Shown here in pieces: positions 17,501 to 64,000 of a stretch of DNA of 64,000 bases (positions are counted from its first letter, which is position 1; every line of letters starts with the position of its first letter). The translations under genes and the position numbers were made by a program. Where the stretch lies: NCBI GenBank assembly GCA_964603945.1, contig CAZRWP010000002.1, positions 123,880-187,879 of the forward strand. The letters are read 5' to 3'. The notes beneath the pieces were generated by a model, which had not been told where the DNA came from, did no database searches, and saw nothing but the letters and a program-made list of their open reading frames with translations. The DNA is from an uncultured Pseudomonadales bacterium (GTDB taxonomy: Bacteria > Patescibacteriota > Microgenomatia > UBA1400 > UBA1396).

Positions 17501-18789
17501 CTTCATTAGCTACGGTATCACCGAACTCACTTATATTTACCAACGCTAATTGGGACACGCCACAAGTAGTTACCTTAGAGGCCGTAGAAAATGATGTTGT
17601 AGGAAATAGTACTTCGGAAATTTCTCTTTCCATTGACACTTCTAATTCTGATGCAGCCTGGCATGGATTAATGGTAGAAACTGTATCGCTCATGATTCAA
17701 GACAATGATTCTCCTCAAGTATTATTGTCTCCGACTGATATCGAACTTGAAGAAGGTAGTTCAGGCGCAGTCAGCTTGAGATTAGGTTCCCAACCCCAGA
17801 CAGACTCTGTTGTGGTAATTGAGCTAATTCCAAACACGACTGAGTTGGATTTAGGTAATGGATTTGCTTCCAATATGACAGTTAGTTTTGATAGCACCAA
17901 TTGGAATGTAAATCAACAAGTGCCAATTATGGTTCAGGATAACTCTTTAGTCGATGACAATCGGATGGCTGAAATAAGAGCCAATATAAGCGTTATTGAA
18001 ACTACTGATCCAGATTATCTTGACCTAGTCTGGGATGAAATTATTTATGTACAAATTCTTAATAATGATGATCCAGAAATTCCTGTGCCAGAAGAACCAA
18101 CGCCAGAAGAGCCAACACCGCCCAAGAAAAGCAGTAAAAAACCCAAGAGCGAGTCAGAAAACAGAAGCAAAGCTTGCACTAACAGCAGCCCAACCGGAAA
18201 GCCATATTTGTTTCAAATTAAGATGCAGGGATCTTCAGCAGAACTATTCTTTGCTCCTACCCAAAACACAACTGACTACTTAGTTATGTATAACGTTGTC
18301 AATAATGATCAACAACACTCAATGAAGTTTGCCCATAAAGATAATTCGGGAGTTGTGTCAACGACCATCAATGATCTGGCTACAAATACGCAGTATAGTT
18401 TTAGTGTGCGCTCATTCAATGAGTGCCAACCAGGTGAGTGGAGCAATGAAATGGTTGTCAAAACCAGTGCAAGCACCACGGCTACCCTATTTTATGCCGG
18501 TGGCGAATCCGAAGCGGCGGGCGGATCATCGGCGAATACTGACCTTGTCGGATCTGAACTTTCAACTGTGGATAATAATGAATCTGTATTACTTGAAGCT
18601 TCACCTGATGATTTTGTAGCCGATAAAGCAAATAACGACCCAACTAGCAATGATCGTGACGATGGTGAAAATGCGGACAATTCTCATCAACTTAGTGGAG
18701 CAACTAATTCAGTCGGCAATAATGAACAACCAAACAAATCTTGGTTAAGACGAGTTTGGGATACATTTACCAATATATTTTCCAGGTAA
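14524..18789 (+). CDS. giant secreted repeat protein (1421 aa): signal peptide, at least 10 tandem roughly 100-aa beta-sandwich (Calx-beta/cadherin-like) repeats, FN3-like domain, acidic low-complexity C-terminus
   Basis: Signal-like KIGKVFSITLLALTLGVLFSSSISQVKA (the true start may be the Met at about 14569). Repeat consensus ...VTVSPTS..T.EGG.T..Y.V.L..QP...V......TF...NW...Q.V.V.AVDD...EG.H..TI.H.... PEEPTPEEPTPPKK linker. Confidence 0.8.
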   Translation: MFGVARGVIYQKTEFMISKLNILNHTINRLPKIGKVFSITLLALTLGVLFSSSISQVKAEPLVGELSFDSTAINVTEGANNTYSIVLLSQPVSDVVVTLSHDGEISVDKDSVTFTDSNWGTPQIITVTGTTDNKVEGSHDSTITHSIATDTEVAEVVVTIADATEAGYTIPTSNFELAENNQSVTREVVLTAQPINDVVFSLTSTNPDRVIVTPATLTFTNANWSIQQEISIASVDDYIQQTSPVTADISIGIDDDNSDPLWADLTDSSFTVTLTDNDTAGVTVSPTSVSTTEGGDTDEYTVKLDSQPTGNVVINVIPDGQSSTDKSTLTFTAGNWDSDQTVTVTAVDDTLIEGNHASTITHEINTASTDDALYDSLDSLTIVTNNISDNDNPGFSLSTKNLSVEENGGTNTFSVVLSAQPQGTVNFALVSSSTDEATVSPTSITFTNANWDEAQVVTVTGVDDDHLGNDTAQISVSVDSSGSDANWDSLPTDSVDILLLNNDEAGVTVSPTSVSTTEGGDTDEYTLVLTAQPSSEVIIDISPDDQSLVDPNQVTFTTGNWNIAQTITVSANDDTLLEPTHSSTISHSLSGDTDFSEVSISSVTNTITDNDQGAIEVESTSLVVGENGGEGSIAVRLTQPPTASVVVQAVSTDTSEATVSPSELTFTTDNWQDYQNFLVVGVDDNIDRNDSTTISLNIDETRSPEEWQGTDSVQVEISLTDNDTAGVTVSPTSVSTTEGGDTDEYTVKLDSQPTGNVVINVIPDGQSSTDKSTLTFTAGNWDSDQTVTVTAVDDVTVEGTHSSTINHEINTSDTEDSVYLELGSLSQVANNITDNDSPAYTLSDESTSITEGSSQVISINLQTRPTSTDSPIKLEINSSDTNEASVDPSFVEFTYDNWNTPKNFTIYSIEDYVVRSDTATISISPAETNPTSWKGDQLADKQINVSFIDNDVPAFSVSQLDVGIAEGDSDTVEVMLDVAPENQVALTVASSNPSLATVSPNSLIFTNANWDTPQVVTLEAVENDVVGNSTSEISLSIDTSNSDAAWHGLMVETVSLMIQDNDSPQVLLSPTDIELEEGSSGAVSLRLGSQPQTDSVVVIELIPNTTELDLGNGFASNMTVSFDSTNWNVNQQVPIMVQDNSLVDDNRMAEIRANISVIETTDPDYLDLVWDEIIYVQILNNDDPEIPVPEEPTPEEPTPPKKSSKKPKSESENRSKACTNSSPTGKPYLFQIKMQGSSAELFFAPTQNTTDYLVMYNVVNNDQQHSMKFAHKDNSGVVSTTINDLATNTQYSFSVRSFNECQPGEWSNEMVVKTSASTTATLFYAGGESEAAGGSSANTDLVGSELSTVDNNESVLLEASPDDFVADKANNDPTSNDRDDGENADNSHQLSGATNSVGNNEQPNKSWLRRVWDTFTNIFSR
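15346..15579 (+). repeat. exact 234-nt intragenic direct repeat, copy 1 (copy 2 at 16681..16914; partial third copy 16036..16100)
   Basis: Base-by-base comparison of the two stretches shows 234/234 identity. The third copy shares the first 65 nt. Confidence 0.85.
16681..16914 (+). repeat. exact 234-nt intragenic direct repeat, copy 2
   Basis: Identical to 15346..15579. Confidence 0.85.
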
Positions 18790-26501: not shown

Positions 26502-27230
26502 CTATTCCGGATAACATCCCCAATTTTCGTACCAATTGTACCCTTCTAAGTTTTGGGTACAGCAATCTACGTCGTTACCAGCTGAACACTCGGTTGGGCA
26601 TATTCCATCAGATTCAGCACTACAGCTGGCCATTGATTTGGGATAACATCCCCAGTTTTCAAACCAATGGTAATCGGAAAGTTTTTGGTCACAGCAATCA
26701 GCATCGTTACCGGCTGAACAATACCAGTGGCAAATTCCGTCTGCTTGAGCAGAGCATAATAGCTCCTTGGGATAGCACCCCCAATTTTCATACCATTTAT
26801 AGTCTGATCTGTTTGAGCAACAATCATTATCGTTTCCAGCGGTGCAGTTGCTAGGACAAATGCCATCACTAACAGCTGAGCACTTTTGTATAGGTGTTGG
26901 AATGACTACTGGCTTTGATGTTGGTTTGCGAGTCGGTTCTGAGACAGGAACAAGTGGTGCTGAGTATGGTTTTTGAGTAGTTGCGGGTTTTGGTTCCGGT
27001 GCGGCTGGTTTAGGTGCGGTTGGAGTATTTCCTCCCCCATGACAATGTCGTTCATTCCAAGGTACGCCCCATTCGTCACAATTTGTCCGACAGTAGTGAC
27101 AGCCATCCGAGGCCGTCCTGCCAGGATGGGCCAAAGTAGATGTTGAAAACGTAAACAAGAAAGCTAAAACTGCAAGATATATAAGGATAATCTTAGTCAC
27201 TATGGTTTTAGTATAACCTGAAATACCCAA
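26502..27230 (-). CDS. secreted Cys-rich protein with triplicated 7-Cys roughly 40-aa module
   Basis: Signal peptide. PT-rich linker. Three tandem repeats CSA.SDGICP.NC.AGND.DCC.......Y.WYENWGCYP[KE]. Confidence 0.6.
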   Translation of the reverse strand: MGISGYTKTIVTKIILIYLAVLAFLFTFSTSTLAHPGRTASDGCHYCRTNCDEWGVPWNERHCHGGGNTPTAPKPAAPEPKPATTQKPYSAPLVPVSEPTRKPTSKPVVIPTPIQKCSAVSDGICPSNCTAGNDNDCCSNRSDYKWYENWGCYPKELLCSAQADGICHWYCSAGNDADCCDQKLSDYHWFENWGCYPKSMASCSAESDGICPTECSAGNDVDCCTQNLEGYNWYENWGCYPE

Positions 27231-37295: not shown

Positions 37296-37985
37296 TTACA
37301 CCAGAGGTTGATATTGAAGCAGTGTCAGTCTTACGGTTTTATCCATTTTGGTCAATGTTTGACGCAATTTTTCTAAATCGGTATTTGACTTGGGTTTAAC
37401 CAGAAACATCATAACTTGTTCCTTTTCCTGAGATAGACGAATAAGTTTAATTTGATGGCAGTGACTTTCTAACACCTTAAGGACTTCTGGAAGTGGTTGT
37501 GGCTGCGCAAAGACAATCTCCAGGTGAAGTGAGTCCTTGTCAGTAAATAAGCGGCTCAGTTGTCGTCTCAGCAGGGCTTGTCCTAAAATTACCGTCATAA
37601 TTACCCCAAAAAAGATCAGCGTAATTATTGGTTGATTGGCACCAAAACCTAGGCCCAAAGCAATTGTCAGGAAAATATAAGCCAGTTCTTCCGGATCCTT
37701 GATGGCGGAACGGAAACGCACGATCGACAAAGCACCAACGAGGCCTAGTGACAAAGCCAAAGAAGATTGAATAATCGAAATAATCAACATGGTAGTCAAG
37801 GACATCAGCGGCAAGATGACAGCTAACCGGCTACGGTTGGATAAGGAATTGCCCAAATAATAATAGGTGATGGCGACCAGGCTGGATAAAGCAATTAAAA
37901 TCAAAGAATAGATAAAAGTTTGACCTGGGTCAAAAGTTCCGCTAACTGAAAAATATTCGCGAAGTAAATCTAGCTGCATAACCAA
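37296..37985 (-). CDS. DUF4956 family membrane protein (Vtc1-like)
   Basis: Signature LVGALSIVRFRSAIKDPEELAYIFLTIALGLGFGA plus multiple TM helices. Recalled co-occurrence with CotH and VTC-domain genes. Confidence 0.55.
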   Translation of the reverse strand: MVMQLDLLREYFSVSGTFDPGQTFIYSLILIALSSLVAITYYYLGNSLSNRSRLAVILPLMSLTTMLIISIIQSSLALSLGLVGALSIVRFRSAIKDPEELAYIFLTIALGLGFGANQPIITLIFFGVIMTVILGQALLRRQLSRLFTDKDSLHLEIVFAQPQPLPEVLKVLESHCHQIKLIRLSQEKEQVMMFLVKPKSNTDLEKLRQTLTKMDKTVRLTLLQYQPLV

Positions 37986-38010
37986 ATAAGTATAGCATTG
38001 GTTATCTTAA

Positions 38011-39771
38011 TTATTGAGTAACGGTATTAGCTTGAGTGAAGAAATCTTGCGAGTGCTGTGTGAAGGCGGCCGGCCTGGCCCTGAGGTAGTCCTTTAACAG
38101 TTCTACTCGCCTCTCCCACTCTTCCACCGAAGCCACGCTTGGCACCGGCGCAGAGTAGCTACCCAGATGGCTGAGCGCTTCTTGATCTACTAATTCCGAT
38201 TGACCGTTCTGGCCGGCCGCCGATTCTTGATCCATTCCAGCCTGGCTGGCAAGATCCGCCGACTCACTGGCCTTTACTCCGCCCCAGCGTTCCACTTGAC
38301 GCGGCATTTCTGGTCTAATTTCTTCAGCCAAGCGGTCAACCGTAGCCGTCATATTATCGCCGCTCAAAGTAGTTTGAGTTAGCTCGGCCAGTCGCTCAGT
38401 CCACTGTTTTTGGAATGGCCGGTTAAAAAACAAGTTGCGGAATGGAAATTCATGATCCTCAAAATTAGTAAAAGGATTGCCATTGGCTGACTTGATCATT
38501 CTTTCGGTTGAGTCGTTACTGCCACCCATTGATACGTCTAGATCAAACAATAGCCAGCGCCAGCGGCCATCTAATTCCGGCACCATTTGGGATTCAACGG
38601 GCGCGGCAATTTCTGTCCGGTAACGCCAAGCCTTGGTGTTGTTATAAGGCCAGTCAATGTTGGCAAAAAAGAATTCAAAAAGCAGATAGTCTAGCAAATT
38701 ATTGATATCACTCAGGCTATTAACATGACTGTAACTTGCACAATGGGTACAAGCTCTGATATCAGATAAAAGACGGTTATAAAGTGCCGCCTCCCCTTCC
38801 ATTTGCTTGGTGTCGCCAACAGCCCGACCACGGTTCACGCCATTGTCTAAAGGTATATCAACTACCGCCAAGGCTTCCGGATCTACTCGATATTTTTCCT
38901 CAAAGTAAGTTTCGTCAAAGCGCTCGCGGACATAATAAAGTCCCCAGTACTCACCATTCAGATACAGGACGACTGGCCTGGCTGCTTGGGCGTCCAACGT
39001 AGAATCACTTTGTTCAACTAACTCCGCCGCCAAGCGATCACGCATAAAGGCGTTTTGGGCATCACCGCCACCATTTCTTAAAATTAATGAAGAATGTTGT
39101 CGGTTGCCCTCCTCGCCAAAAATTGGATAAGTAAGTTTTTCTTCTCGGCCATTTTCATCCTGAATGTAAATGCGAAATGATTTCTGAGCCATGCCACGCA
39201 TGGCATTTCCATGTAATCTCAGGCCAATGGTATGCTCAAAACCAATCTTCTGATCTGGTTCATACCAACGCATCATGGCCGGCCGTTCCCACTTATCGCC
39301 ACTTTGACGATGATTGTTGTTGTTGCCTTCGATGTAAATACCAATCTCTGGATCCCAGAGTGAAGCCGGCGGCAAATTAATCGAAATAATCGGTAGAGTG
39401 TGTTCAGTACCGATAAAGAAATCCTGACGCTGGGGTTTGGTCAGTACTTGCCCATTTTGATCGGTAATCGTAGTTTGCAACACCACAGTTTTATTAATCT
39501 CAACTGGCTCTCTATAAATTAGTGAATCCGATCCAGGTGACGACCCATCAAGAGTGTAGCGAATATCACCATTAATCGGTGAGCTCAAACTAACGGAAAT
39601 TGGCTCCTTAAAAAATTGACCGCGCGGTGAGATCGCCACCGGCTCAGACAGTAAATTTCTAAGCAAAAAATTGGACTGCCAAAACGCTAAAACCACGAGT
39701 AATAAAACTCCAAAAACCAGCCCAAACAGCCGACTATTTTGAGAAATTGGACTAACACGATAAAGCTGCAT
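38011..39771 (-). CDS. CotH kinase family protein (N-terminal TM anchor)
   Basis: CotH-like blocks LILRNGGGD, RD.LAAEL, LYLNGEYWGLYYVRERFDETYFEEKY. N-terminal TM. Confidence 0.65.
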   Translation of the reverse strand: MQLYRVSPISQNSRLFGLVFGVLLLVVLAFWQSNFLLRNLLSEPVAISPRGQFFKEPISVSLSSPINGDIRYTLDGSSPGSDSLIYREPVEINKTVVLQTTITDQNGQVLTKPQRQDFFIGTEHTLPIISINLPPASLWDPEIGIYIEGNNNNHRQSGDKWERPAMMRWYEPDQKIGFEHTIGLRLHGNAMRGMAQKSFRIYIQDENGREEKLTYPIFGEEGNRQHSSLILRNGGGDAQNAFMRDRLAAELVEQSDSTLDAQAARPVVLYLNGEYWGLYYVRERFDETYFEEKYRVDPEALAVVDIPLDNGVNRGRAVGDTKQMEGEAALYNRLLSDIRACTHCASYSHVNSLSDINNLLDYLLFEFFFANIDWPYNNTKAWRYRTEIAAPVESQMVPELDGRWRWLLFDLDVSMGGSNDSTERMIKSANGNPFTNFEDHEFPFRNLFFNRPFQKQWTERLAELTQTTLSGDNMTATVDRLAEEIRPEMPRQVERWGGVKASESADLASQAGMDQESAAGQNGQSELVDQEALSHLGSYSAPVPSVASVEEWERRVELLKDYLRARPAAFTQHSQDFFTQANTVTQ

Positions 39772-39772
39772 G

Positions 39773-40504
39773 CTAATGGTAGTATACGTCGTTGGGATGA
39801 CACTGTTGCATCCCCATCACGAATTTTGATGACTTGCTGACCCTTAAGGGCAGTCCCTGAGCCAAGCTTGGTAGTTTTGTATCGTCTGAGATGGGATATT
39901 TGGCTTCCAATATGGTAATCGGGAGTTGTCGGGTGGTCAGATTATTTTCCCAATCGGTAATAGTGGAAAAGTGCAGATCACTATCAATGGTTATCCTTAA
40001 ATCATTTTGCGCCGAGGTGAAATAGCGGCGTTGGTAGTGATTTAATAGGGCGGGTTGCAAAATTCCACTCTCTTCTAAATGAGTCTCAAGCTGTTGTCGG
40101 ACCAAGTCAGTTAGCTCAGCTAAGGAAAGATCTTTTATAGTGGTTTGAAACGGATAAGTAAGTTTGAGCATGACCTCGCCATCGCGACGTTTTAACTCAA
40201 TTTGAAGCTTATCCAACTTATTGTCTTTGTCTGAATACCATCTGACACGCGCCTTGACCCGTTGCGGTTGGCCTAAAAGATTTTGCTGATAATACTCATA
40301 TTCTGGCGTATCAAAGTACAGAGTCCAAATTTGACGCGGTACAAAAGCCGGCCGGAAAATATCCGGGTGCATTAAAAGACGCTGTTCCAACTGGTCGGGA
40401 TCGTAAACGTCACTCAAATATTTGCGCTCATAGCGGTAGACGGTCAAAGGAGCTGTAGATGATGTGCCAGAGCCTGAATTCATAAAAGAAGGCATAACTT
40501 CCAT
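39773..40504 (-). CDS. VTC-domain (CYTH-like polyphosphate-polymerase-type) protein
   Basis: N-terminal YRYERKYL and about 240 aa, consistent with bacterial VTC-domain proteins. One nt from the CotH start. Confidence 0.5.
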   Translation of the reverse strand: MEVMPSFMNSGSGTSSTAPLTVYRYERKYLSDVYDPDQLEQRLLMHPDIFRPAFVPRQIWTLYFDTPEYEYYQQNLLGQPQRVKARVRWYSDKDNKLDKLQIELKRRDGEVMLKLTYPFQTTIKDLSLAELTDLVRQQLETHLEESGILQPALLNHYQRRYFTSAQNDLRITIDSDLHFSTITDWENNLTTRQLPITILEAKYPISDDTKLPSLAQGLPLRVSKSSKFVMGMQQCHPNDVYYH

Positions 40505-43565: not shown

Positions 43566-43653
43566 TGGCGGAGGGAGTGGGATTCGGACCCACGGTATCT
43601 TGCGATACGGCGGTTTAGTAAACCGCTGCACTAGACCACTATGCGATCCCTCC
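43566..43653 (-). tRNA. tRNA-Ser (class II, long variable arm); anticodon reads ACT in the hand fold
   Basis: Acceptor GGAGGGA/UCCCUCC, G73, CCA encoded, D-arm GCA-UAGUGGUCUAG-UGC, anticodon stem GCGGU/ACCGC with loop UUACUAA, 17-nt variable arm, T-arm GUGGG-UCCGAAU-CCCAC. Anticodon needs tRNAscan confirmation. Confidence 0.7.
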
Positions 43654-52083: not shown

Positions 52084-54564
52084 TTAGTTGCCGAAAGTTG
52101 GCGGTTTTGGTGGCTGAAGCCCGGCTGGTGCGGCTGGCTGGATGTCTTGTCCAGTGGTTGGTTGGGCAGGAAGTTGTTCAGAGGTTGGCTGAGTAGGAGG
52201 CTGTTCGTCTGCCTGAGGTCCGACTGGCGAATTAACTGTTGGCTGGGTTACATCCTGTGAATCAACTGGTGGTTGTGTTGTTGTTGATTCAACCGATTGA
52301 GGCATATTTGGCGGTGTCAAAGCTGAGTCTGTTGATAAAGTCTCATTAAAAGAAACATTTGAGGGATAGGTGGGGGCGGATGAAGGCATAGCTGATGGTG
52401 CTGGCGTACCGGTAACCGGCGCATCTGAGCTGGATCCGGTCTCAGTAGATGGTACTGTTTGAACTGCCTCGGCTCCTTGGCTGGAGTCCTCTAATGGAGA
52501 CATTTCATCATCTGAAAGAACCACTGGAATGTCTTGAACCATTTGTACTAGTTCATTCAAGCTATCTTGAACCTCATCTGCATTGTCAGGGATTTCAAGG
52601 GTTTCAGGGGACTGGGTTGGTGCAGGTGTAGGACTGGATGTTGGCGCGGGAGTTGTTTCATCTGCTCCCATTTTGCTTAATTCTTGATTCCCTGGCTGTT
52701 CTGGCTCAGAAAATACTTCAGCTGGCGTAAAATCTGTCCCCTGATCTGAAGATTCGTTATTTTCGATTGACAAATCAAGAGTTGGAGTTGAGGTTTGAGC
52801 AGGCGTTGATGCCTGGGCAGGAGCAGGTGTAGGTGTTGGTGCGGAAGTTCGCATAGGTGCTGGTGCCGAAGCAGGTTCTTGCGTTGGCGTTGGCACTGAA
52901 TCTGCTGTCGGTGTTTGTGATAAATCTGGCACTGGCTTAATAGATGGCATTGCATTTGGCATAGCCGATGTTGGCGTTGAAATTGGTGCCTCTGCCGGCA
53001 GAGGAGTTGGTTCTGATGAAGGTGAACTATTTACCTCAGCATTGGGCTGTGGTTGAGCATTGGGCTGTGGTTCAACATTTGGTGGGGTTTGAGCTACCTG
53101 ATCTGTTGGCGTTGTATCTGACATAGCAATACTTTCTAAGTTTGTTGGGTCTTGAGACATTGGGCTAGGTTGAGGTGTGGAAATAGGTGCTTGAGCAGGA
53201 ACTGGCTCAGTTGCCGGAGCTGGCATTTGGGCTGTTTGATTAGAAGGCTCAGGCTGAGAAGCAGGATAAGTCGGAGAAGTTGGAGCAGTTTGCATAGCAG
53301 GTTGTGTGGAAGCCATCAGAATTTCTTCAATTCTTAAAAGCCGATTATATTTAACGACTCTTTCACCTCTGGATGGGGCGCCAAATTTAACGTAATCAGT
53401 TCCAATGCCGACGGCAATATCTGCTAAAACGTCATCAGTAGTTTCGCTAGAACGGTGCGACATGATGGTGTGCCAGCCGGCTTGCTTGGCAATACTGGCT
53501 ACTTCAATAGCTTCCGTAATAGTTCCAATCCGGTTAGGCTTAATGACCAAAGCATTGCAGGCCTTTTCTTCAATTGCTTTCATGAGTAACGTTTTGTTGG
53601 TGGCGATCAGGTCATCAGCGATAATCATTGCTGTCTCGCCCATCTCACCAGTAATAAATTTCCAATCACTCCAGGCTTCCGGTACTAATGGATCCTCAAA
53701 AGCGAAAACCCGATATTGTTCATGCAGTTTTTTAAGATACTTGGCAAAATCCTTGCCACTCATTGGCTGAGATTGATCTTTAATGGTGTATTTGCCGCTT
53801 TTATGGAAGTTATCTGAGCCGACATCAATTCCTAAAAAGGCATCCTTAGAAATGGTGTAGTTAGCGGCTTTAGCGGCTTCGGCAAAAATTTCCAAGGCAT
53901 CTGTATTGGTAGCCAGGTTAGGTGCAAAACCACCCTCCAGACCAACATTGGTTAGAGCACCCTTTTGTTTGAGCACTTCCTCAATTGACATGAACATCTC
54001 CACACCAATTTTTAGAGCTTGGTTGTATGGTAGATGGCTGGCAGGAACAAGTTGGAACTCCTGGAAATCCAAGGTGCCGCCACCATGGCGGCCGCCATTA
54101 ATTAAATTAAAAATGGGTGAAGGAATGCGGAAAGCATCGATTAATTGGTATTTTTCTTTAACATAGACAAACAGCGGCAAACGCAAGGAAGCCGCGGCCG
54201 CCTTCATCACTGCCTGGGAAACCGCCAGAATCGTATTAGAGCCTAAGCGTGATTTATTTTTGGTACCGTCTAGATCCACCAGCAGCTGGTCAATCTTAGT
54301 CTGGTAAAGTGGATCTTGCCCGGCTAGTTTTTGGTTGATTTCCACATTTATCAAAGCGACTGCTTTTGAGACGCCCAGGCCAAAATACTCAGTTGGCACA
54401 TGATCGCGCAGCTCAACCGCCTCCACTTGCTCATTGCTTATGTTACCTGAGGGAACCGATGAAGTCGCAATGGTGCCATCGGACAGGGTGACGGTAGCCT
54501 CAACCGTTGGGCGTCCTCTGGAATCAAGTATTTGACGGGCGGTGATAAGTTGAATATTTGACAT
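52084..54564 (-). CDS. eno: enolase fused to a roughly 390-aa Pro/Thr/Ser/Ala/Gln-rich low-complexity C-terminal extension
   Basis: Enolase blocks SRGRPTVEATV, SHRSSETTDDVLADIAVG, KFGAPSRGERVVKYNRLLRIEEIL. After the enolase domain at about 430 aa the frame continues into ...TAPTSPTYPASQPEPSNQTAQMPAPATEPVPAQ... through ...PPKPPTFGN. Confidence 0.85.
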   Translation of the reverse strand: MSNIQLITARQILDSRGRPTVEATVTLSDGTIATSSVPSGNISNEQVEAVELRDHVPTEYFGLGVSKAVALINVEINQKLAGQDPLYQTKIDQLLVDLDGTKNKSRLGSNTILAVSQAVMKAAAASLRLPLFVYVKEKYQLIDAFRIPSPIFNLINGGRHGGGTLDFQEFQLVPASHLPYNQALKIGVEMFMSIEEVLKQKGALTNVGLEGGFAPNLATNTDALEIFAEAAKAANYTISKDAFLGIDVGSDNFHKSGKYTIKDQSQPMSGKDFAKYLKKLHEQYRVFAFEDPLVPEAWSDWKFITGEMGETAMIIADDLIATNKTLLMKAIEEKACNALVIKPNRIGTITEAIEVASIAKQAGWHTIMSHRSSETTDDVLADIAVGIGTDYVKFGAPSRGERVVKYNRLLRIEEILMASTQPAMQTAPTSPTYPASQPEPSNQTAQMPAPATEPVPAQAPISTPQPSPMSQDPTNLESIAMSDTTPTDQVAQTPPNVEPQPNAQPQPNAEVNSSPSSEPTPLPAEAPISTPTSAMPNAMPSIKPVPDLSQTPTADSVPTPTQEPASAPAPMRTSAPTPTPAPAQASTPAQTSTPTLDLSIENNESSDQGTDFTPAEVFSEPEQPGNQELSKMGADETTPAPTSSPTPAPTQSPETLEIPDNADEVQDSLNELVQMVQDIPVVLSDDEMSPLEDSSQGAEAVQTVPSTETGSSSDAPVTGTPAPSAMPSSAPTYPSNVSFNETLSTDSALTPPNMPQSVESTTTQPPVDSQDVTQPTVNSPVGPQADEQPPTQPTSEQLPAQPTTGQDIQPAAPAGLQPPKPPTFGN

Positions 54565-57274: not shown

Positions 57275-57604
57275 TTAGGTTAAATCTTCTATTGAGTATG
57301 GAAAAAGATCTTGACGCCTCTTTATCAAGGTACTTTTTTCATAGCCTTCAGGTAAATCATCTATTACTATTTGCATATAACGGTAAATTTCTTGATTTTC
57401 AGGCATGATTGAATGGGCGTCTGCAAGTAAATTGAATGATTCAGTATGATTCATGATTTCTCCACCTATGGCTTGATTAATTAACCACTTAACCTCTCGT
57501 TGTTTGCGTAATTCTTTGTCTTTAGGATCGGGCTGCTGATAATTAGGTGGTGGCTCGACGAAAGTTATGGGAGTTGCTTCAACAGGACTGTCTTGACCAT
57601 CCAA
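57275..57604 (-). CDS. hypothetical acidic protein; possibly the C-terminal continuation of 57737..60028 (same frame, separated by one TAA)
   Basis: TTG start as listed. The 44 in-frame codons upstream, back to the TAA at 57737-57739, are protein-like but contain no start codon. Confidence 0.35.
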   Translation of the reverse strand: MDGQDSPVEATPITFVEPPPNYQQPDPKDKELRKQREVKWLINQAIGGEIMNHTESFNLLADAHSIMPENQEIYRYMQIVIDDLPEGYEKSTLIKRRQDLFPYSIEDLT

Positions 57605-57736
57605 CTCTTCTAGATCGTCGGGCTCGTTAGCTAATTCATCAAAAGCATCCCAGTCATAAGGTGCATCATCAGGATTATCACCAGGGGGATTGGGTGGTAT
57701 TACCTCAGCAATTGGCGCAGACCTTGCCTGTTGTTC

Positions 57737-60028
57737 TTAAAAGTCTTCATCTACTTCGGCTTGATGCTCTTTTAAAGTTTTATCATAATCTTCATTATTT
57801 ACTTGAAGATCTTTAAGCCTTAATTTCAAAACATTGATCTTGTCTTGATTTGATATGCCTTTAACTAAGTAAAAATACTCAATATAACGTTTATCTTTTT
57901 TTGCATCATATTGAATAGCCGGCAAGACAATAGTGTCAAAATCAAGTTTTCCAGTGTTTAAGTCTGCAAGGATTTCTTCGTACAACGAAATGAGCTTGAT
58001 TTTGGCTGATAAGTAATTGGTTTTAAACAATTCTACGATTTCATCACCCTCATCAGCATAATGTTTTTGAAGAATTTTTAAATTCTCTTTCCTTTTCTGT
58101 GATTGATCATTTGATTCTGTGCGTCTTAACAAACGCTTCCACCATTTCTTTTTTGGTACATTATTGTCTGGTTCTTGATTATTGGGAAATATTGGCCGAG
58201 GATCGTTATTACCTTCACGAACTTCTTTATGGTCGCTTGTGCCGAGATGGGGCGTTTCTTCTGGTTTGTTCTTGAATAGAGATCTGTACTTAGGATCTGC
58301 AAAAACTCGTTGGACTGCATTCCAAAAACTAAAAGGCGTTGTTATGTCAAAATTATATATTTCAGCTAATATTTCAAGTGGAATATTGTTGGCTGTTAAT
58401 TCATTACCATTAGACAACCTTAATGTTATGCCTTTATCTTTATAGCTCTTAATTACTTGATTAAACGTATTGAGCGCATCTTCAGGAGAAATTTTATCGG
58501 CGTGCGACTGTAAAAATTCCTCTACTGTTTGAGGTTGTGGGGATTGATTGGGTTTTCGCTCTGAATTAATTGCACTAGTTGGTCTTGTGTCGTCATCTGA
58601 TATTGGTGGCTCGTCAATAGTAGGTTGGTTTACAGGGGTGATCGGAGTAGTAATCTCAGGAGATGAGTCAGCATTTACAACACCAGTACTTATAGGTTCA
58701 TCTGATGGTTGATCTTCATTTAACCATTCTTGAAGCCAATTCGGTGCACTTTCTTCCTTTGCGGGATCGGATATCGGTTCGGGATTCTGACTGTCAGTGA
58801 CGACAGTTGGGCTTGGCTCTACTGATTCAGGTTGAACAACTGACTCGATCGGGTTGACAAGGCTATCAAGCCTGCTTGAAGCATCATCAGAAGGTACAGA
58901 TTTAGTTGGAGCTTGCGATGTTGGTTGAGTTGTTGCAAGACTTTCAGGTTCACCAGCGCCTTCTGCTTCTAAGCTTGGGTTTGTATCTAGTGATACATGA
59001 AGCTCTTGACGTTTTTTAATCTCTTCCTTAGAAACTTCTGGTCCTGGACCAGTATCCACCCCTTTTGCCCTAAGCTGTTTTTGTAGCTTGGCTATCCTGG
59101 CCTCTGAATTATCAAGATAATTACTAACCAATGTTTTTTCTAAACTTGCAGCCTCATCTCGTAGCTGTTTAATTTGATCAAGATTATCATTTACCATCTT
59201 TAAAATCTCATCTTGTCTAGTTTGTGCCTCGGCAAATGCTTGCTGAGCTTCTTTTAGTAAAAACTCTGCTGTTTGGAAATCATTCATTTTTGCAACGTGT
59301 TCATCAGAAAGAATTTCCTCTTCTTCTGGATCGAATTCATTGTTGGATTTAAGTATTGTTTCCTGTTCGTCTCGGATCTGAAAAGCGGTTTTAATTTCGC
59401 TTGTAGCATGGGCTAGGGAGATATGCGCATCTCTGGCATCAGGAAATAAAGATTTATTAGCTTGGCTCAGTTCTTCAATTGCAGATCTTATTTGAGACAA
59501 TCTTTCATGGGAAGCTTGAAACTCAGCTTTTTTTCGTGCATTTTTAGCCTGTTGCTCACGGTAAGCTTGCTTGGCATCTTCGTATAGTTTGATAGTTTCA
59601 ATGTTTCTAGTCTCAAGACCTTGATACATTCCAAGCTCAATGGCCAGTGCCTCTCTCACTTTCTCATTACCCGCTTCCTCAATACGTTTTTCTAGATCAG
59701 CGATAATTGAGCTGAAATCAACTTTACTTCGATCTTTTATTTCTTTATCCAAATCTTTGACAAAAGCATGTCCGGTCTCTTCTAGAGCATCTTCACGGAC
59801 AGCAGTATTAGCAACTCTTAGATTTCGATCAAGATCATGCCCAAGTTGCTCAGAAAAATCGTGAGGAAGATCTTGTGAGCGCAAACCACTTGGAAATTCA
59901 GGGTTATTCTTTAATTTATCATCTAGCTGTTGTCTAAATTCTGCCTCTGAGGCAATGTGAAAGGGTTCATCTATTGTTTCATTAGGTTGAGTTGTTTGGT
60001 CAGATACTTCTTGTCGATTTGCAGTCAT
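57737..60028 (-). CDS. large hypothetical protein (763 aa), coiled-coil N-terminal half with a Pro/Ser-rich disordered centre
   Basis: Heptad-like charged segments. PESVEPSPTVVTDSQNPEPISDPAKEE low-complexity region. Confidence 0.5.
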   Translation of the reverse strand: MTANRQEVSDQTTQPNETIDEPFHIASEAEFRQQLDDKLKNNPEFPSGLRSQDLPHDFSEQLGHDLDRNLRVANTAVREDALEETGHAFVKDLDKEIKDRSKVDFSSIIADLEKRIEEAGNEKVREALAIELGMYQGLETRNIETIKLYEDAKQAYREQQAKNARKKAEFQASHERLSQIRSAIEELSQANKSLFPDARDAHISLAHATSEIKTAFQIRDEQETILKSNNEFDPEEEEILSDEHVAKMNDFQTAEFLLKEAQQAFAEAQTRQDEILKMVNDNLDQIKQLRDEAASLEKTLVSNYLDNSEARIAKLQKQLRAKGVDTGPGPEVSKEEIKKRQELHVSLDTNPSLEAEGAGEPESLATTQPTSQAPTKSVPSDDASSRLDSLVNPIESVVQPESVEPSPTVVTDSQNPEPISDPAKEESAPNWLQEWLNEDQPSDEPISTGVVNADSSPEITTPITPVNQPTIDEPPISDDDTRPTSAINSERKPNQSPQPQTVEEFLQSHADKISPEDALNTFNQVIKSYKDKGITLRLSNGNELTANNIPLEILAEIYNFDITTPFSFWNAVQRVFADPKYRSLFKNKPEETPHLGTSDHKEVREGNNDPRPIFPNNQEPDNNVPKKKWWKRLLRRTESNDQSQKRKENLKILQKHYADEGDEIVELFKTNYLSAKIKLISLYEEILADLNTGKLDFDTIVLPAIQYDAKKDKRYIEYFYLVKGISNQDKINVLKLRLKDLQVNNEDYDKTLKEHQAEVDEDF

Positions 60029-60085: not shown

Positions 60086-61078
60086 TTATCCCAATCCTGG
60101 CAGATTTAATATTGTTACGCCAATATATTCTAGGATGATGATTGAAAAGATGATGAAAAGTAGTCCACTAATAGCCGCTGTTATTAACTCTTTAGCTTGT
60201 TTAACTTTACCTGATTCACCACGTGAGGTGGTGAAGATAAAGGAAGAGGCCAAAATTGATAGGAATGAAGCCATACCAGCGACCCCTAATAATATCTTGA
60301 TTAAACTGGCGGCAAAGACGTTAAATTTTCCATCTTGAGCTACCTGAATACACCCAACCGCGGTAAAGATATACTCGCCTTCTATTCCTTTATTAACACA
60401 AGCTTGACAAGCTCCTCTTTGAGTTGAAGGGTCATTAATATCTCCAGGAACTTGATTGCAGTAGTCGAATGGAATTCCCGCTGTTGATTGTTTTACTTCG
60501 CAAGCATAAGAACTTTCACAGCACCATCGACTGTCGTAAGATGATGTTTCTACATCTTGAGTACAAAAGGATCCTCCAGCTTTGGCGCAAAACTCTCGTG
60601 CTGATGTATCAGTTGGAAATTCAGTGTGAGATAAATCTAAGCATCCTTCAGTAACTCGACATACGCCATCTGACGCACAAGAACCTCTTAAGCATTCGGA
60701 GTCATTCTTGCACGCGCCTCCTAGGTCAGATAAGCGTCCGGCAGAGAAGCACTCGCAAACTGATAGACCACCGCCAGATACTGTCTTTTTTCCTTCAAAA
60801 CACCAAGCGGCTGACGGGAAATCACCAAGCTCTGAATCATAGCAACAATATTGTCCGTAGCCACCACAGTTGGGAAAAGCTGATCTATCACTAGGATCTT
60901 TGCAGATTCCACTAAAGCCTGAGCCAAGGTCATTTCTCTCACAAAATAATCCAGGAGCACATCCGCTATCTAGTTTGGTGTAATCACAGGATTCTCCAGC
61001 TGCTATTTGAGCTTTGACACTAGATTGGAAGAAAAAGAAATAAAATAATACTAATAATAGTAAAGTAATCCTTTTCAC
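60086..61078 (-). CDS. TrbC/VirB2-like pilin with a large N-terminal Cys-rich ectodomain
   Basis: Signal peptide. About 230-aa domain with more than 30 Cys. C-terminal LLGVAGMASFLSILASSFIFTTSRGESGKVKQAKELITAAISGLLFIIFSIIILEYIG resembles the VirB2/TrbC pilin core. Confidence 0.55.
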   Translation of the reverse strand: MKRITLLLLVLFYFFFFQSSVKAQIAAGESCDYTKLDSGCAPGLFCERNDLGSGFSGICKDPSDRSAFPNCGGYGQYCCYDSELGDFPSAAWCFEGKKTVSGGGLSVCECFSAGRLSDLGGACKNDSECLRGSCASDGVCRVTEGCLDLSHTEFPTDTSAREFCAKAGGSFCTQDVETSSYDSRWCCESSYACEVKQSTAGIPFDYCNQVPGDINDPSTQRGACQACVNKGIEGEYIFTAVGCIQVAQDGKFNVFAASLIKILLGVAGMASFLSILASSFIFTTSRGESGKVKQAKELITAAISGLLFIIFSIIILEYIGVTILNLPGLG

Positions 61079-61121
61079 CTGGTTATTCTATCATTTACCT
61101 TATTTGAAAAGGAATAATTCT

Positions 61122-61799
61122 CTACTCCCCCGTATATTCCAGTAAATCGTTGTTTTTGCGGTCTTCACGGGCGCGGTCGCGGTCGTTGTATTCCATTTCC
61201 ACAATCCACTGATTGACGGAAAATGCCCAGGAGCCATTGCTGGAGGGGGTGTATTTGGTCATGATCTCTTCTGGTGTAGTGAGGCCGATATCGATGTAGC
61301 GCTCCTTGATTTCCCGGGCGGCGCGGTCAAAGCCAGCTTCGTAGTTTTCAAAACCTAAGGTGCCACGAGCGTGCACACCAAAGCCTAAGCAATTATAAGA
61401 ACCAGGTGGAATTGATTTGCAGAGGTTGCTTTCCTGCATCATGATGGCTGGCAGTAAGCGGTAGTCAAGATCATAGCGGTCAGCTGTTTCTACTAAGACT
61501 CGGCCAAAGTGATCATAGGGTTCCAGGGGTGAGCTATGGCGTTCCAGGAAATTGGCCACAATAAAAGTTCGGGCATCAGCGGTTTGAACAGCAGTCTTTA
61601 AGCCGGTGTCGCTTAGAGGAATAGGGATCGTGCGTTCGGAGGTGGTGCCGTCTGAGGTGGCAATAGTCACACCTGTACCTGGTTCTGGCTTTAATTCAAT
61701 TGTTCGCATTCGCCAGGCGCTAATGCTTAGCAAACTAAACAACAACACTGGAGCCAAAGACAAAAATAATCCACTGACAATATAACGCCACGCTGACAT
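61122..61799 (-). CDS. putative lytic transglycosylase-like protein (SLT-like), N-terminal TM
   Basis: LLPAIMMQESNLCKSIPPGSYNCLGFG resembles the SLT catalytic Glu-Ser region. Adjacent to the VirB2-like gene, so a VirB1-like role is possible. Weak. Confidence 0.4.
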   Translation of the reverse strand: MSAWRYIVSGLFLSLAPVLLFSLLSISAWRMRTIELKPEPGTGVTIATSDGTTSERTIPIPLSDTGLKTAVQTADARTFIVANFLERHSSPLEPYDHFGRVLVETADRYDLDYRLLPAIMMQESNLCKSIPPGSYNCLGFGVHARGTLGFENYEAGFDRAAREIKERYIDIGLTTPEEIMTKYTPSSNGSWAFSVNQWIVEMEYNDRDRAREDRKNNDLLEYTGE

Positions 61800-61859: not shown

Positions 61860-63041
61860 TTACAGACGCCTGACGAGCTTTTTGGAACTACTTGATTGGG
61901 TTGACCTAGTCTTAAGGGCTGACTTGCGTTTCGGCATTGTTTGCTCACGAATCAACCGGAACAGTATTCCCAGGCCGGCTAGACTCGAGACATAAGCCGA
62001 GCCCCCATAAGAAACCAAAGGCAAGGGAATGCCAGTTAATGGCAGAAGGGCGACCATAGCCGCCAGATTAATTAATATCTGCATGGCAAACCAAGTCGTG
62101 ATGCCCGCCGCCACTAAAAATTGAAACGGTTCCTTTTGTGATTTAGCAACTTCTACCCCAGTGCCAAGTAATAAGACGTACAGACCAATCAAAAATAGAG
62201 AGCCAATAAAGCCGGTTTCTTCAGCGTAAACGGCAAAAATAGAGTCATTAGCGGCTTCAGGAATGTAGTGTTGTTTTTGTTTAGACAGACCTATACCCTG
62301 CCCCAACCAACCTCCCCGGCCTAAAGCAATGGTTATTTGTCTGATGTGGTAAGACTTGACCAAAGGGTCGCTGGCCGGATTTATAAACGTCATCAAGCGT
62401 TCGCGCCGGTATTCAGCCCCAAAAATTAAAGCAATTCCCGCCACCAAAGAAATAGCTAAAAACACAAAGAGTGGTTTAAGATTGCCGCCAGCCAAAAAAT
62501 ACATGACGGCGCCAATGGAAAATAAGATGACGGCCGTACTCATGTTGGGTTGTGCGAGGATCAGCGTGGAAATTAAGGCAGAAAAAAACAAAAAAGGTGC
62601 AAAACGTTGATGTCTGGAAAGCCAGGACGCAAAAAAGACTATTAGCGCCAGTTTAGTAATTTCAGCTGGCTGAATGGGAATATCGCCAAGCATAATCCAA
62701 CGTTGAGCGCCTTGTAGACGAACTCCCACGCCAGGGATCAAGACAATGAATAATAGAAGCACCGCCATTCCAAAAAGCCAGGGCGCGGCCTTTTGCCAAA
62801 ATTGAGACGGAATCGTGCCTAAAAATAAATAAACAGTTAAGCCTATCGCCAGCCAGACGCTATGTCGGGCGGCAAAATGCCAGGAATTTCCATATGTCCG
62901 CAGACTGTCGGGTACCGAGGCGTCAAAGATAAATAGCAATCCAAACAAGGAAAAAAAGATTACAAACCAGGTAAATGGCCAAGGATGATTCAGCCATTCC
63001 AAAATATTGCGATGGGTGGGCAGTTGGCGGGTTCTTTTCAT
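61860..63041 (-). CDS. ftsW: SEDS family peptidoglycan polymerase FtsW/RodA
   Basis: About 10 TM. Motifs PGVGVRLQGAQRWI, DIPIQPAEITKLALI. Immediately downstream of murD, which is the dcw order. Confidence 0.8.
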   Translation of the reverse strand: MKRTRQLPTHRNILEWLNHPWPFTWFVIFFSLFGLLFIFDASVPDSLRTYGNSWHFAARHSVWLAIGLTVYLFLGTIPSQFWQKAAPWLFGMAVLLLFIVLIPGVGVRLQGAQRWIMLGDIPIQPAEITKLALIVFFASWLSRHQRFAPFLFFSALISTLILAQPNMSTAVILFSIGAVMYFLAGGNLKPLFVFLAISLVAGIALIFGAEYRRERLMTFINPASDPLVKSYHIRQITIALGRGGWLGQGIGLSKQKQHYIPEAANDSIFAVYAEETGFIGSLFLIGLYVLLLGTGVEVAKSQKEPFQFLVAAGITTWFAMQILINLAAMVALLPLTGIPLPLVSYGGSAYVSSLAGLGILFRLIREQTMPKRKSALKTRSTQSSSSKKLVRRL

Positions 63042-63042
63042 G

Positions 63043-64000
63043 CTATTCCGGAAGCTGGCGGACTAGTTCGTTAAATTGTTCGCCACGGTCAAATTCATTC
63101 GTAAACATTTCAAATGAGGTAAAGCCAGGTGAAAGTAGCACGGCTTCAGCTTTAAAATCTTGAGCCAGTTGACTAGCTTTTTGCACAGCCTCGGCTAATG
63201 ATTCAGCCAAAAAAAGTTGAGTTGGCGCCAAGTTCTGTTGATTGAAAGCCGTTTGAATTTCCTGTTGTCCGCTACCGCGCAGAAGAATAAGGGCGGTTGG
63301 CTGATTAGCTAGCTGGTTAATTAATTCGGGTGAAAGCGGCAGGTGTTTGGTGGCACCGCCAGCAATTAGGATAATTTTCTGATTTTTATAGGCATCTAGC
63401 GCTTTTTCCAAGGCGGTTGGCGTGGTGGCGGTAGTATCGTTGATATAGGTTACGCCTTGCTTGACGGCAATTGTCTCCAAGCGAAATGGCACGCCGTTAA
63501 AAGTTGCCATAGCCGACTGAATTTGCTCATTAGTAAGACCAAAAGACTGTACAGCCTGAATCGCTAAGGCAATATTTTCCCAATTGTGATCGCCTGGCAA
63601 GTTTGTTTGATATTGCTGACGTAGATCAGTAATCATTTCTTGAGTTATCTGATAAATATTAACCTCATCAGCTAGAGCATCTTCTAGCCAGGGAGACCAA
63701 TCACGATCAGCTTGATAAATGGCAGTATCTCCAGGTTTTTGATAAGAAAATAAATCGGTTTTGGCTTGTAGATAAGCCGACCAGTCTTGGTAACGGTTGA
63801 GATGATCTGGATAAATACTGGTGATGACGGCAATTTGCGCTGATGTTTTTGTGTATCGCAATGACTCAATTTGGAATGAAGAAATCTCAACTACTGTCCA
63901 GGTTTGATCATCTAGATTTATTAGCTGAGGTAATAGTGGACTGCCTGGAATATTGCCGGCTAAGACATGAGGAATATTAGCTGTTTGCAGAAAGTGAGAA
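63043..64000 (-). CDS. murD: UDP-N-acetylmuramoylalanine--D-glutamate ligase, C-terminal part (continues past window end)
   Basis: Frame open to 64000 (...TWTVVEISSFQIESL = the MurD ELSSFQLE block). DHLNRY. Mur-ligase C-terminal domain. The ORF-track start at 63861 is an internal TTG. Confidence 0.75.
   Translation of the reverse strand, partial: SHFLQTANIPHVLAGNIPGSPLLPQLINLDDQTWTVVEISSFQIESLRYTKTSAQIAVITSIYPDHLNRYQDWSAYLQAKTDLFSYQKPGDTAIYQADRDWSPWLEDALADEVNIYQITQEMITDLRQQYQTNLPGDHNWENIALAIQAVQSFGLTNEQIQSAMATFNGVPFRLETIAVKQGVTYINDTTATTPTALEKALDAYKNQKIILIAGGATKHLPLSPELINQLANQPTALILLRGSGQQEIQTAFNQQNLAPTQLFLAESLAEAVQKASQLAQDFKAEAVLLSPGFTSFEMFTNEFDRGEQFNELVRQLPE

Follow-up and report, generated by a model that had tools for sequence, protein, structure and literature searches.

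Within a 64,000-nucleotide (nt) stretch of DNA from an uncultured bacterium (positions 123,880 to 187,879 of contig CAZRWP010000002.1, assembly GCA_964603945.1; the whole stretch is referred to here as the window), two open reading frames (ORFs) on the minus strand of positions 60086-61799 encode proteins of 330 and 225 amino acids (aa). The explanation that we favour, with moderate confidence, is that these are two separate genes, one for a modular VirB2-type pilin of the PF18895 family that displays an adhesin-like module and the other for a glycosidase of the cell wall. The host of this locus is a Microgenomatia/Woesebacteria-like bacterium of the candidate phyla radiation (CPR). The homologues and all 58 related genome loci belong to metagenome-assembled genomes (MAGs) of Patescibacteria (Woesebacteria, Microgenomates, Pacebacteria, Shapirobacteria and others), and the nearest GTDB loci are found in MAGs of Woesebacteria, Microgenomates or unclassified Patescibacteria. 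Some patescibacterial relatives bear clearly wrong 'Pseudomonadales' labels.

A pilin-type hairpin beneath a cysteine-rich ectodomain

The two genes, and the parts of the first, are as follows, the hairpin of the 330-aa protein being formed by two transmembrane (TM) helices:

60086-61078, minus strand: modular pilin-like gene, 330 aa (whole ORF including the stop codon, GTG start)
61010-61078, minus strand: signal peptide, residues 1-23 (MKRITLLLLVLFYFFFFQSSVKA), placed from the sequence, an AlphaFold2 (AF2) helix at residues 2-16 and a hydrophobic segment at residue 1
60470-61009, minus strand: variable cysteine-rich ectodomain, residues 24-203, with 20 of the 24 cysteines
60323-60469, minus strand: conserved neck, residues 204-252 (FDYC-x-QVP ... 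C-x-x-C ... IFTAVGCI), with C207, C224, C227 and C243
60089-60322, minus strand: PF18895-type hairpin, residues 253-330, comprising TM helix 1, the basic loop TTSRGESGKVKQAKE, TM helix 2 and a C-terminal PGLG
61122-61799, minus strand: gene for a membrane-anchored peptidoglycan glycosidase resembling glycoside hydrolase family 73 (GH73), 225 aa

Judged by comparison of sequences and profiles, the C-terminal module of the 330-aa protein belongs genuinely to the superfamily of CPR VirB2-like pilins, being homologous at the family level to PF18895 (T4SS_pilin, a pilin belonging to a type IV secretion system, T4SS). This conclusion follows from the Pfam matches of its homologues, from a profile-profile alignment and from a loop motif that is common to long and short forms. 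Among 22 word-index homologues, 19 match PF18895 at E≤0.1 (best 3.2e-7) and four carry a precomputed PF18895 flag. A profile made of 18 long-form C-terminal modules only was aligned by hhalign with a profile of 30 short pilins from arrays of related genomes, giving 98.5% probability and an E value of 1.8e-15 over 73 columns that span both helices and the loop. All 30 of the short pilins match PF18895 (best 5.8e-13), two of them also matching TrbC/VirB2 (PF04956) at 1.7e-4, and the loop motif G-D/E-S-x-K...A-K/R is found in long forms and short pilins alike. The link from PF18895 to classical VirB2 draws on Pfam, the literature and weak transitive matches. The 330-aa protein has no direct match to PF04956 or to any solved conjugative pilin, and a search of PDB sequences with the C-terminal module profile returned designed helical proteins only and no pilin.

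The predicted architecture is that of a pilin in all respects other than size. AF2 models the C-terminal hydrophobic hairpin with its basic loop (SRGESGKVKQAKE) as helices at residues 253-284 and 289-319, with a predicted local distance difference test (pLDDT) score of ~78-84 across the helix-loop-helix. Hydrophobic segments start at residues 1, 252 and 295, and the loop, SRGESGKVKQAK, contains four basic residues. The signal peptide, which is predicted to be of the typical Sec type and to be cleaved after VKA23, is thus combined with two hydrophobic helices and a short basic loop, as in PF18895 pilins. The precursor of 330 aa (~307 aa when mature) does not share the small size of those pilins, whose precursors are of ~100-160 aa; it is ~2.5-3 times as long as short pilins of 98-160 aa in relatives, the short pilins of related loci spanning 93-199 aa. 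A preliminary description of this DNA, made from the letters alone, had recognised both the two-helix C-terminus of VirB2/TrbC type and the roughly threefold length, and both observations are borne out, the former by the AF2 hairpin together with the family-level homology to PF18895.

All 24 cysteines lie in the ectodomain including the neck (residues 24-252, ~229 aa), where they account for 10.5% of residues. The length of ~230 aa previously given for this region therefore holds, whilst the count of more than 30 cysteines does not. The structure prediction that had been proposed for the cysteine-rich domain yielded an AF2 model of mixed confidence, below 50 for residues 67-114, and the domain has no Pfam, PDB-sequence or PDB-fold match. 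A Foldseek search of the PDB with the 330-aa model gave nothing at E≤0.001 and nothing below E 0.9; the conjugative pilin of Aeropyrum appears at rank 8 with E 3.5.

A copy of the gene is present in a sister strain (L001:10722-11570; JGI metagenome 3300001682, contig SAHD_10006293), beside an identical 225-aa gene. Its first 275 residues match; beyond them a deletion of 46 nt takes away the loop and the last part of TM helix 1 and shifts the frame, leaving a product of 282 aa. Either a naturally occurring pseudogene variant or an error of assembly could account for this copy. The occurrence of a 282-aa gene next to an identical 225-aa gene had raised the suspicion that the locus is hypervariable at strain level, which was rejected on the finding of the 275-residue match followed by the deletion.

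A large family with exchangeable N-terminal modules

An exhaustive HMMER search over 1.84 billion cluster representatives (50%-identity clusters) returned 13,029 representatives at E≤1e-3, 6,229 at E≤1e-10 and 1,584 at E≤1e-30, from which it is clear that the decorated long forms are a large unnamed family and not a one-off. Medians for the top 154 members are 409 aa in length (range 146-694) and 14 cysteines. The number of cysteines is even in 82% of these members, which suggests disulfide pairing, and a T-A-x-G-C motif lies 88-99 residues before the C-terminus in 147. An alignment of the 22 homologues resolves into an unalignable N-terminal region, a conserved neck and a strongly conserved hairpin. 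The family neck reads F-D-Y-C-x-Q-V-P ... C-x-x-C ... I-Y-T-A-V-G-C-I and has four near-invariant cysteines. Pairwise identity in this set is ~25% in the N-terminal domain, which is the level of forced global alignments, as against 61% in the hairpin; the N-terminal domain of the window's protein is shared with a single homologue (P0002, 51%).

In relatives, the protein encoded at the orthologous position ranges from ~120 aa with two cysteines up to the 711 aa and 47 cysteines seen in L014. The ectodomain thus has the behaviour of a cargo that can be exchanged or dispensed with, carried by a pilin core that is conserved. Long forms are accompanied in these genomes by short pilins and by short-pilin arrays of 6-11 members. 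In four loci an array of 7-9 short PF18895 pilins is closed by a protein of ~880-960 aa with 22-26 cysteines (L047:12491-15373, L052:7382-10264, L060:7394-10264 and L062:7625-10264), the C-terminus of which matches the same pilin hairpin hidden Markov model (HMM). The array-closing protein of L047 has no Pfam domain at E≤0.001.

A GH73-like glycosidase encoded upstream

On profile and structural comparison, the 225-aa protein is a membrane-anchored GH73-like (glucosaminidase/FlgJ/LytB-type) glycosidase of the lysozyme superfamily and is not a member of the SLT family. It has an N-terminal TM helix at residues 3-32, and its catalytic region is placed as follows:

61164-61583, minus strand: catalytic lysozyme-like domain, residues 73-212, with E123 (codon 61431-61433) in the motif MMQESN, E154, and K-Y-T-P at 182-185

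Homologues number 1,739 at E≤1e-3, and every named one is called hypothetical. In an alignment of 36 diverse members, the N-terminal TM helix is joined by a variable linker to a core of ~150 residues in which 52 columns are invariant, among them E123, E154 and K182-Y183-T184-P185. The profile of this alignment matches 8yxk, the glucosaminidase domain of the Clostridioides difficile endolysin Ecd09610, at E 3.3e-5, and LytB weakly (E 0.66-0.73). In the HMMER alignments QESN is paired with HETGN in 8yxk and with LESN in LytB, and KYTP with KYAP. The same endolysin domain is the best match in both structure and sequence, with identity to GH73 structures of only 11-23%. The lytic transglycosylases MltF, Slt, Slt70, MltC and MltE score only 5.7-7.7, and EtgA, an enzyme of the type III secretion system, 6.1. 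It is the 8yxk profile match, with the catalytic glutamate aligned, together with these low scores, that places the protein near GH73: its fold is lysozyme-like of the GH73 kind, and the closest fold is not that of SLT/Mlt. Searches of Pfam and NCBIfam gave no match, including none to PF01464 (SLT) at E≤1. The TM anchor and MMQESN motif noted earlier in this protein were accordingly recovered, the glutamate being invariant in all 36 homologues, whereas its designation as an SLT-like lytic transglycosylase was not upheld. E123 is likely to be the general acid, and the enzymatic specificity is a prediction.

The GH73 enzyme LytB of Streptococcus pneumoniae acts in cell separation. For the 225-aa enzyme, its extreme conservation and its place after ftsW make a housekeeping role in wall remodelling or cell separation the most economical reading, and the enzyme may secondarily serve to open the wall for the pilin. 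Four distant homologues of ~50-55% identity (in L011, L012, L071 and L072) have neither ftsW nor a pilin gene nearby. In each of these, a gene of ~325-350 aa and no assigned function stands head-to-head with the GH73-like gene (L011:4916-5968, L012:4854-5888, L071:3956-4933 and L072:3925-4938) and may be a second conserved partner of the glycosidase; one of these partners has a weak match to Glyco_hydro_cc (PF11790).

Gene order and probable co-transcription

The neighbours of the two genes lie on the same strand:

63043-63861, minus strand: murD (listed ORF), the reading frame of which extends upstream to near the window end
61860-63041, minus strand: ftsW (PF01098, E 1.4e-93), directly upstream of the 225-aa gene with a gap of 60 nt
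57737-60028, minus strand: gene for an acidic protein of 763 aa, free of cysteines and TM segments, directly downstream of the 330-aa gene with a gap of 57 nt

The murD assignment comes from a phmmer match, with the frame scored as 63043-63999, and the counterparts in L001-L004 have Mur-ligase Pfam domains. In transcription order the string is murD, ftsW, the 225-aa gene, the 330-aa gene and the 763-aa gene; the hydrolase gene is therefore upstream of the pilin gene and does not follow it, as the preliminary description had it. The gaps from ftsW onwards are 60, 43 and 57 nt, and no terminator-like site was found on the minus strand of the string. From the shared strand, these short gaps and the lack of such a site, it appears probable that the 225-aa and 330-aa genes are separate genes co-transcribed at the tail of a dcw (cell-wall/division) string containing murD and ftsW.

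The 763-aa protein has no credible Pfam match, it was seen in near-identical strains only, and it is probably lineage-specific and outside the conserved unit. Directly after it is an ORF of 109 aa, the two together spanning 57275-60028 on the minus strand. The sister strain has in their place a single ORF of 913 aa (L001:11726-14467) that matches the 763-aa ORF along its whole length with 94% identity and has ~150 additional C-terminal residues. This extra C-terminus may correspond to the separate 109-aa ORF, in which case the split in the window may be due to a frameshift or stop, or else may be real variation.

Genomic context in relatives

The comparison covered 58 GTDB species loci and 10 metagenome loci, scanned with HMMs to locate the pilin module and the GH73-like protein and with seeds to locate FtsW, MurD, MraY, VanW and SpoIID. 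The gene recurs in two settings. Context A, to which the window itself belongs, has the order VanW-MraY-MurD-FtsW-GH73-like-pilin, at times with a second long pilin, and was also seen in L008-L010, L013, L014, L016, L017, L021 and L022. Context B, present in 38 of the 58 GTDB loci, has a SpoIID gene divergent from the pilin, which is followed by a second, shorter pilin; in many such loci 6-11 short pilins are arrayed a few kb beyond. Overall, the orthologous pilin adjoins a gene for a peptidoglycan-cleaving enzyme in 44 of the 58 loci, this being GH73-like in six and SpoIID in 38. The SpoIID-domain protein is of ~570-650 aa (for example L031:7766-10715 and L020:7798-10849), and in L005-L007 an uppS (Prenyltransf) gene is close downstream. 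A full-text literature search for SpoIID together with Patescibacteria found no paper.

T4SS genes are scarce around these pilins. A VirB4-like ATPase (PF19044/AAA_10) was found within 10 kb in only two of the 58 loci (L058 and L046), from which it can be concluded that orphan placement is normal for this pilin subfamily. Four gaps between the first pilin pair and the arrays, inspected by ORF size for T4SS genes, held small ORFs only, and the gap genes of L007 include UppS, AA-kinase, NUDIX and a sigma factor. The large ORFs near arrays match SMC, Mg-chelatase, SBP and UvrB in Pfam, with the VirB4-like ATPase again only in L058. In the window, Pfam scans recognised no T4SS gene, so that neither VirB4, VirB6 nor any other T4SS core component is linked to the 330-aa gene across the 64 kb, and the pilin HMM, run over all ORFs of at least 50 aa, matched the 330-aa protein alone. 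The earlier statements that the window is devoid of other T4SS genes and that CPR bacteria are known to encode orphan VirB2-like surface proteins are both in agreement with these results.

Proposed roles and alternative explanations

The favoured explanation can be set out as a series of steps. The 225-aa enzyme would, most likely, act on the cell's own peptidoglycan, cutting its glycan strands during growth and separation, and may also loosen the wall locally for envelope-spanning structures. The 330-aa protein would be exported by the Sec pathway and its signal peptide removed, the two C-terminal helices then inserting as a hairpin that places the basic loop in the cytoplasm and both termini outside, a topology that we infer from the signal peptide and the four basic residues of the loop. 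The N-terminal module, with its cysteines in disulfides, would fold outside the cell on top of the conserved four-cysteine neck. The hairpin would then either anchor the module or be inserted, by T4SS-type machinery presumed to be encoded elsewhere in the genome, into a filament made mainly of short pilins. Filament insertion is rated slightly likelier than simple anchoring and would probably be sparse or at the tip; such minor or tip incorporation is favoured as a domain of ~25 kDa on each subunit seems incompatible with a tightly packed VirB2 lattice. The species-variable module would serve to recognise or adhere to a host cell or surface. Topology, disulfides, polymerisation and adhesin role are all predictions from sequence, of which the last is plausible.

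A number of observations weigh against this explanation. The 330-aa protein's own match to PF18895 (residues 257-319), the only one given by direct Pfam and NCBIfam annotation, is sub-threshold, with 13.6 bits and E 0.074 against a Pfam gathering cutoff of 26.6 bits. Similarly, the Pfam glucosaminidase family PF01832 does not match the 225-aa protein at E≤1. The HMM searches by which VirB2 and SLT membership could be checked thus gave a divided outcome, since the SLT assignment falls and that to VirB2 stands at the family level, with a sub-threshold score for the protein itself and no match to PF04956. The 64-kb window contains no T4SS component, short pilin or SpoIID gene. Homopolymerisation of the 330-aa protein is unlikely, as ~25 kDa of additional domain per subunit would be hard to pack on a VirB2-type lattice. 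The repeated placement of the gene among cell-wall genes (ftsW, the GH73-like gene, SpoIID and uppS) could indicate a role in envelope biogenesis, and we know of no pilus of PF18895 proteins demonstrated experimentally in any CPR bacterium.

Several of these observations are shared by an alternative that we consider rather unlikely, in which the 330-aa protein is a non-polymerising surface or envelope protein whose hairpin has been co-opted as a plain membrane anchor, the cysteine-rich domain acting at the surface or in the organisation of the wall or S-layer, independently of any T4SS. The company of MraY, MurD, FtsW and the GH73-like enzyme, or of SpoIID with uppS nearby, the rarity of VirB4-like ATPases close to the pilin, and the generic nature of the hairpin fold are all in its favour, and a bulky N-terminal domain would be sterically awkward in a VirB2-type filament. 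However, conservation of the hairpin (61% identity, with its loop and C-terminal PGLG motifs) goes beyond the needs of a mere anchor. In many species, moreover, the same locus encodes an orthologue that is a plain short pilin of ~120-145 aa, and long forms stand in tandem with short pilins and bracket pilin arrays.

The VirB1-like arrangement proposed in the preliminary description leads to a second alternative, an orphan T4SS mini-module in which a VirB2 pilin is paired with a dedicated VirB1-like enzyme whose main task is to make a way through the peptidoglycan for the pilin or pilus. The presence of a wall-cleaving neighbour in 44 of the 58 loci sustains part of that proposal, and the adjacency has the appearance of functional coupling in that two unrelated enzyme families fill the position. 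Passages of PMC12102498 also note the possible substitution of other glycosidases for VirB1 in Patescibacteria. The proposal is weakened by the enzyme itself, which is not of the SLT/GH23 type, is far more conserved than the pilin (as its invariant columns and numerous homologues attest), has neither pilin nor ftsW as a neighbour in four out of four distant lineages, and is encoded just after ftsW within the dcw string. In addition, as all 58 loci come from related Microgenomatia-like lineages, their common synteny may reflect descent and not function. We therefore regard a dedicated pairing as unlikely. A prophage-derived lysis cassette, made up of a GH73 endolysin and a two-TM holin-like protein, is very improbable and was rejected on gene context and protein architecture: although the best match of the 225-aa protein is a phage endolysin domain (8yxk) and the neighbouring product ends in a two-TM hairpin, there are no phage genes nearby, in many species both genes sit on the chromosome in a conserved dcw setting, the enzyme is extremely conserved and anchored by an N-terminal TM helix of its own, and the 'holin' would bear a signal peptide and an extracellular cysteine-rich domain of 230 aa and belong to PF18895.

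The explanation by a wall glycosidase and a modular pilin can be carried further, in a proposal that we put forward tentatively. In this proposal the long forms are 'modular VirB2-type pilins', an undescribed CPR family that comprises at least ~1,600 50%-identity clusters. Rapidly evolving modules rich in disulfides, from 0 to more than 600 residues long and placed on the N-terminus of the hairpin, would supply the adhesin or tip function of the essential T4SS pilus, for which no equivalent of VirB5 or PrgB was found; these modules would set host range, and passage through the wall would be coupled to the adjacent GH73-like or SpoIID enzyme. As the adhesin missing from the patescibacterial T4SS pilus, the family of the 330-aa protein is a credible candidate. 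Patescibacteria live attached to other cells and account for much of bacterial diversity, and a widespread pilin subfamily whose extracellular module is hypervariable would be an obvious candidate for host recognition and a marker of host-range evolution. If the adhesin reading is wrong, what remains is a correct and modest re-annotation of two hypothetical proteins. The 225-aa protein is among the most conserved unnamed CPR proteins encountered here, and naming it GH73-like fills a gap in the annotation of the CPR cell wall.

Other features of the window

The remainder of the window is mostly devoted to housekeeping (PPDK, enolase, DnaG, sigma-70, GuaA and ABC transporters), with large Ig/fn3 surface proteins in addition. 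Features observed there are:

9363-13442, plus strand: predicted surface protein of 1,359 aa with Big_13, Big_3 and fn3 domains
14524-18789, plus strand: predicted surface protein of 1,421 aa with fn3 domains
26502-27230, minus strand: second secreted cysteine-rich protein (242 aa, 22 cysteines), with a hydrophobic segment at the N-terminus and a linker rich in Pro and Thr
37296-40504, minus strand: CotH kinase-like protein (586 aa, chitobiase/Fn3-associated domains), VTC-domain protein and DUF4956 membrane protein
43566-43653, minus strand: tRNA-Ser with anticodon ACT (ARAGORN)
52084-54564, minus strand: enolase gene, 826 aa

The two large surface proteins, whose genes flank that of an NAD-dependent epimerase, are further candidates for host interaction. 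The 242-aa protein consists in part of three ~45-aa repeats of the form S-D-G-I-C-P-x-x-C-x-A-G-N-D-x-D-C-C ... Y-x-W-x-E-N-W-G-C-Y-P and has no Pfam match. An unmodified A at position 34 is unusual for a bacterial tRNA-Ser. In the 826-aa enolase, the enolase domains stop near residue 419, leaving ~400 C-terminal residues without a Pfam match; this form is also encoded on the strain contigs L001 and L002.

Comparison with known systems

Solved conjugative pilus structures contain the pilin as a hairpin with both termini outside and a basic loop. The TrbC/VirB2/TraA pilins (PF04956) of the T-pilus and F-pilus are accordingly resembled by the 330-aa protein in its predicted hairpin, orientation of termini and basic loop, as far as these can be deduced from sequence. 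In contrast to those pilins, it has no VirB4, VirB5, VirB6 or relaxase encoded nearby, is much larger when mature and belongs to a monoderm host.

Closer counterparts are the PF18895 pilins of Patescibacteria, with which the 330-aa protein shares a signal peptide, two hydrophobic helices, the short basic G-D/E-S-x-K loop, a CPR host and a gene that often lies apart from virB4. According to the passages of Quinonero-Coronel et al. (2025, PMC12102498) that bear on this, VirB2-like pilins occur in 1,948 patescibacterial assemblies and are near virB4 in 1,135, ~40% not being near; pilin arrays of 2-11 are common, and no adhesin was detected for these T4SS. In Ca. Southlakia epibionticum, the one genetically tractable species, the T4SS and the pilin array inside its cluster are described as essential in the relevant passages of Wang et al. 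(2023, PMC10633639) and of a review (PMC12857230). Neither long modular pilin forms nor a linkage to SpoIID, GH73-like or ftsW genes is described in the passages searched of these three papers. Unlike the small PF18895 pilins described, the 330-aa protein adds ~230 extracellular residues with 24 cysteines and a four-cysteine neck, and its gene is in a dcw string beside a GH73-like gene and not in a T4SS cluster or pilin array.

As a functional analogy only, the proposed arrangement resembles that of the modular type IV pilins PilB and PilC of Streptococcus sanguinis (PMC8179133, PMC9934059), in which a functional (adhesive) module is grafted onto a polymerisation module. The fold and machinery of these proteins, which form a type 4 filament, are unrelated, and their extra module is C-terminal whereas that of the 330-aa protein is N-terminal.

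With VirB1/SLT (PF01464, GH23), the 225-aa protein shares the lysozyme-like superfamily, a catalytic glutamate followed by serine and a gene adjacent to that of a pilin; it differs in the lack of a PF01464 match and of linkage to a T4SS cluster. In common with the GH73 enzymes LytB, FlgJ, AtlA and Ecd09610, it possesses an E-S/T motif containing the catalytic glutamate and a K-Y-A/T-P/T motif, and the cell-separation function of LytB fits the ftsW neighbourhood of its gene. Unlike these enzymes, it has a single N-terminal TM anchor in place of any cell-wall-binding repeats, and it forms its own tightly conserved, CPR-wide family of ~220-aa proteins.

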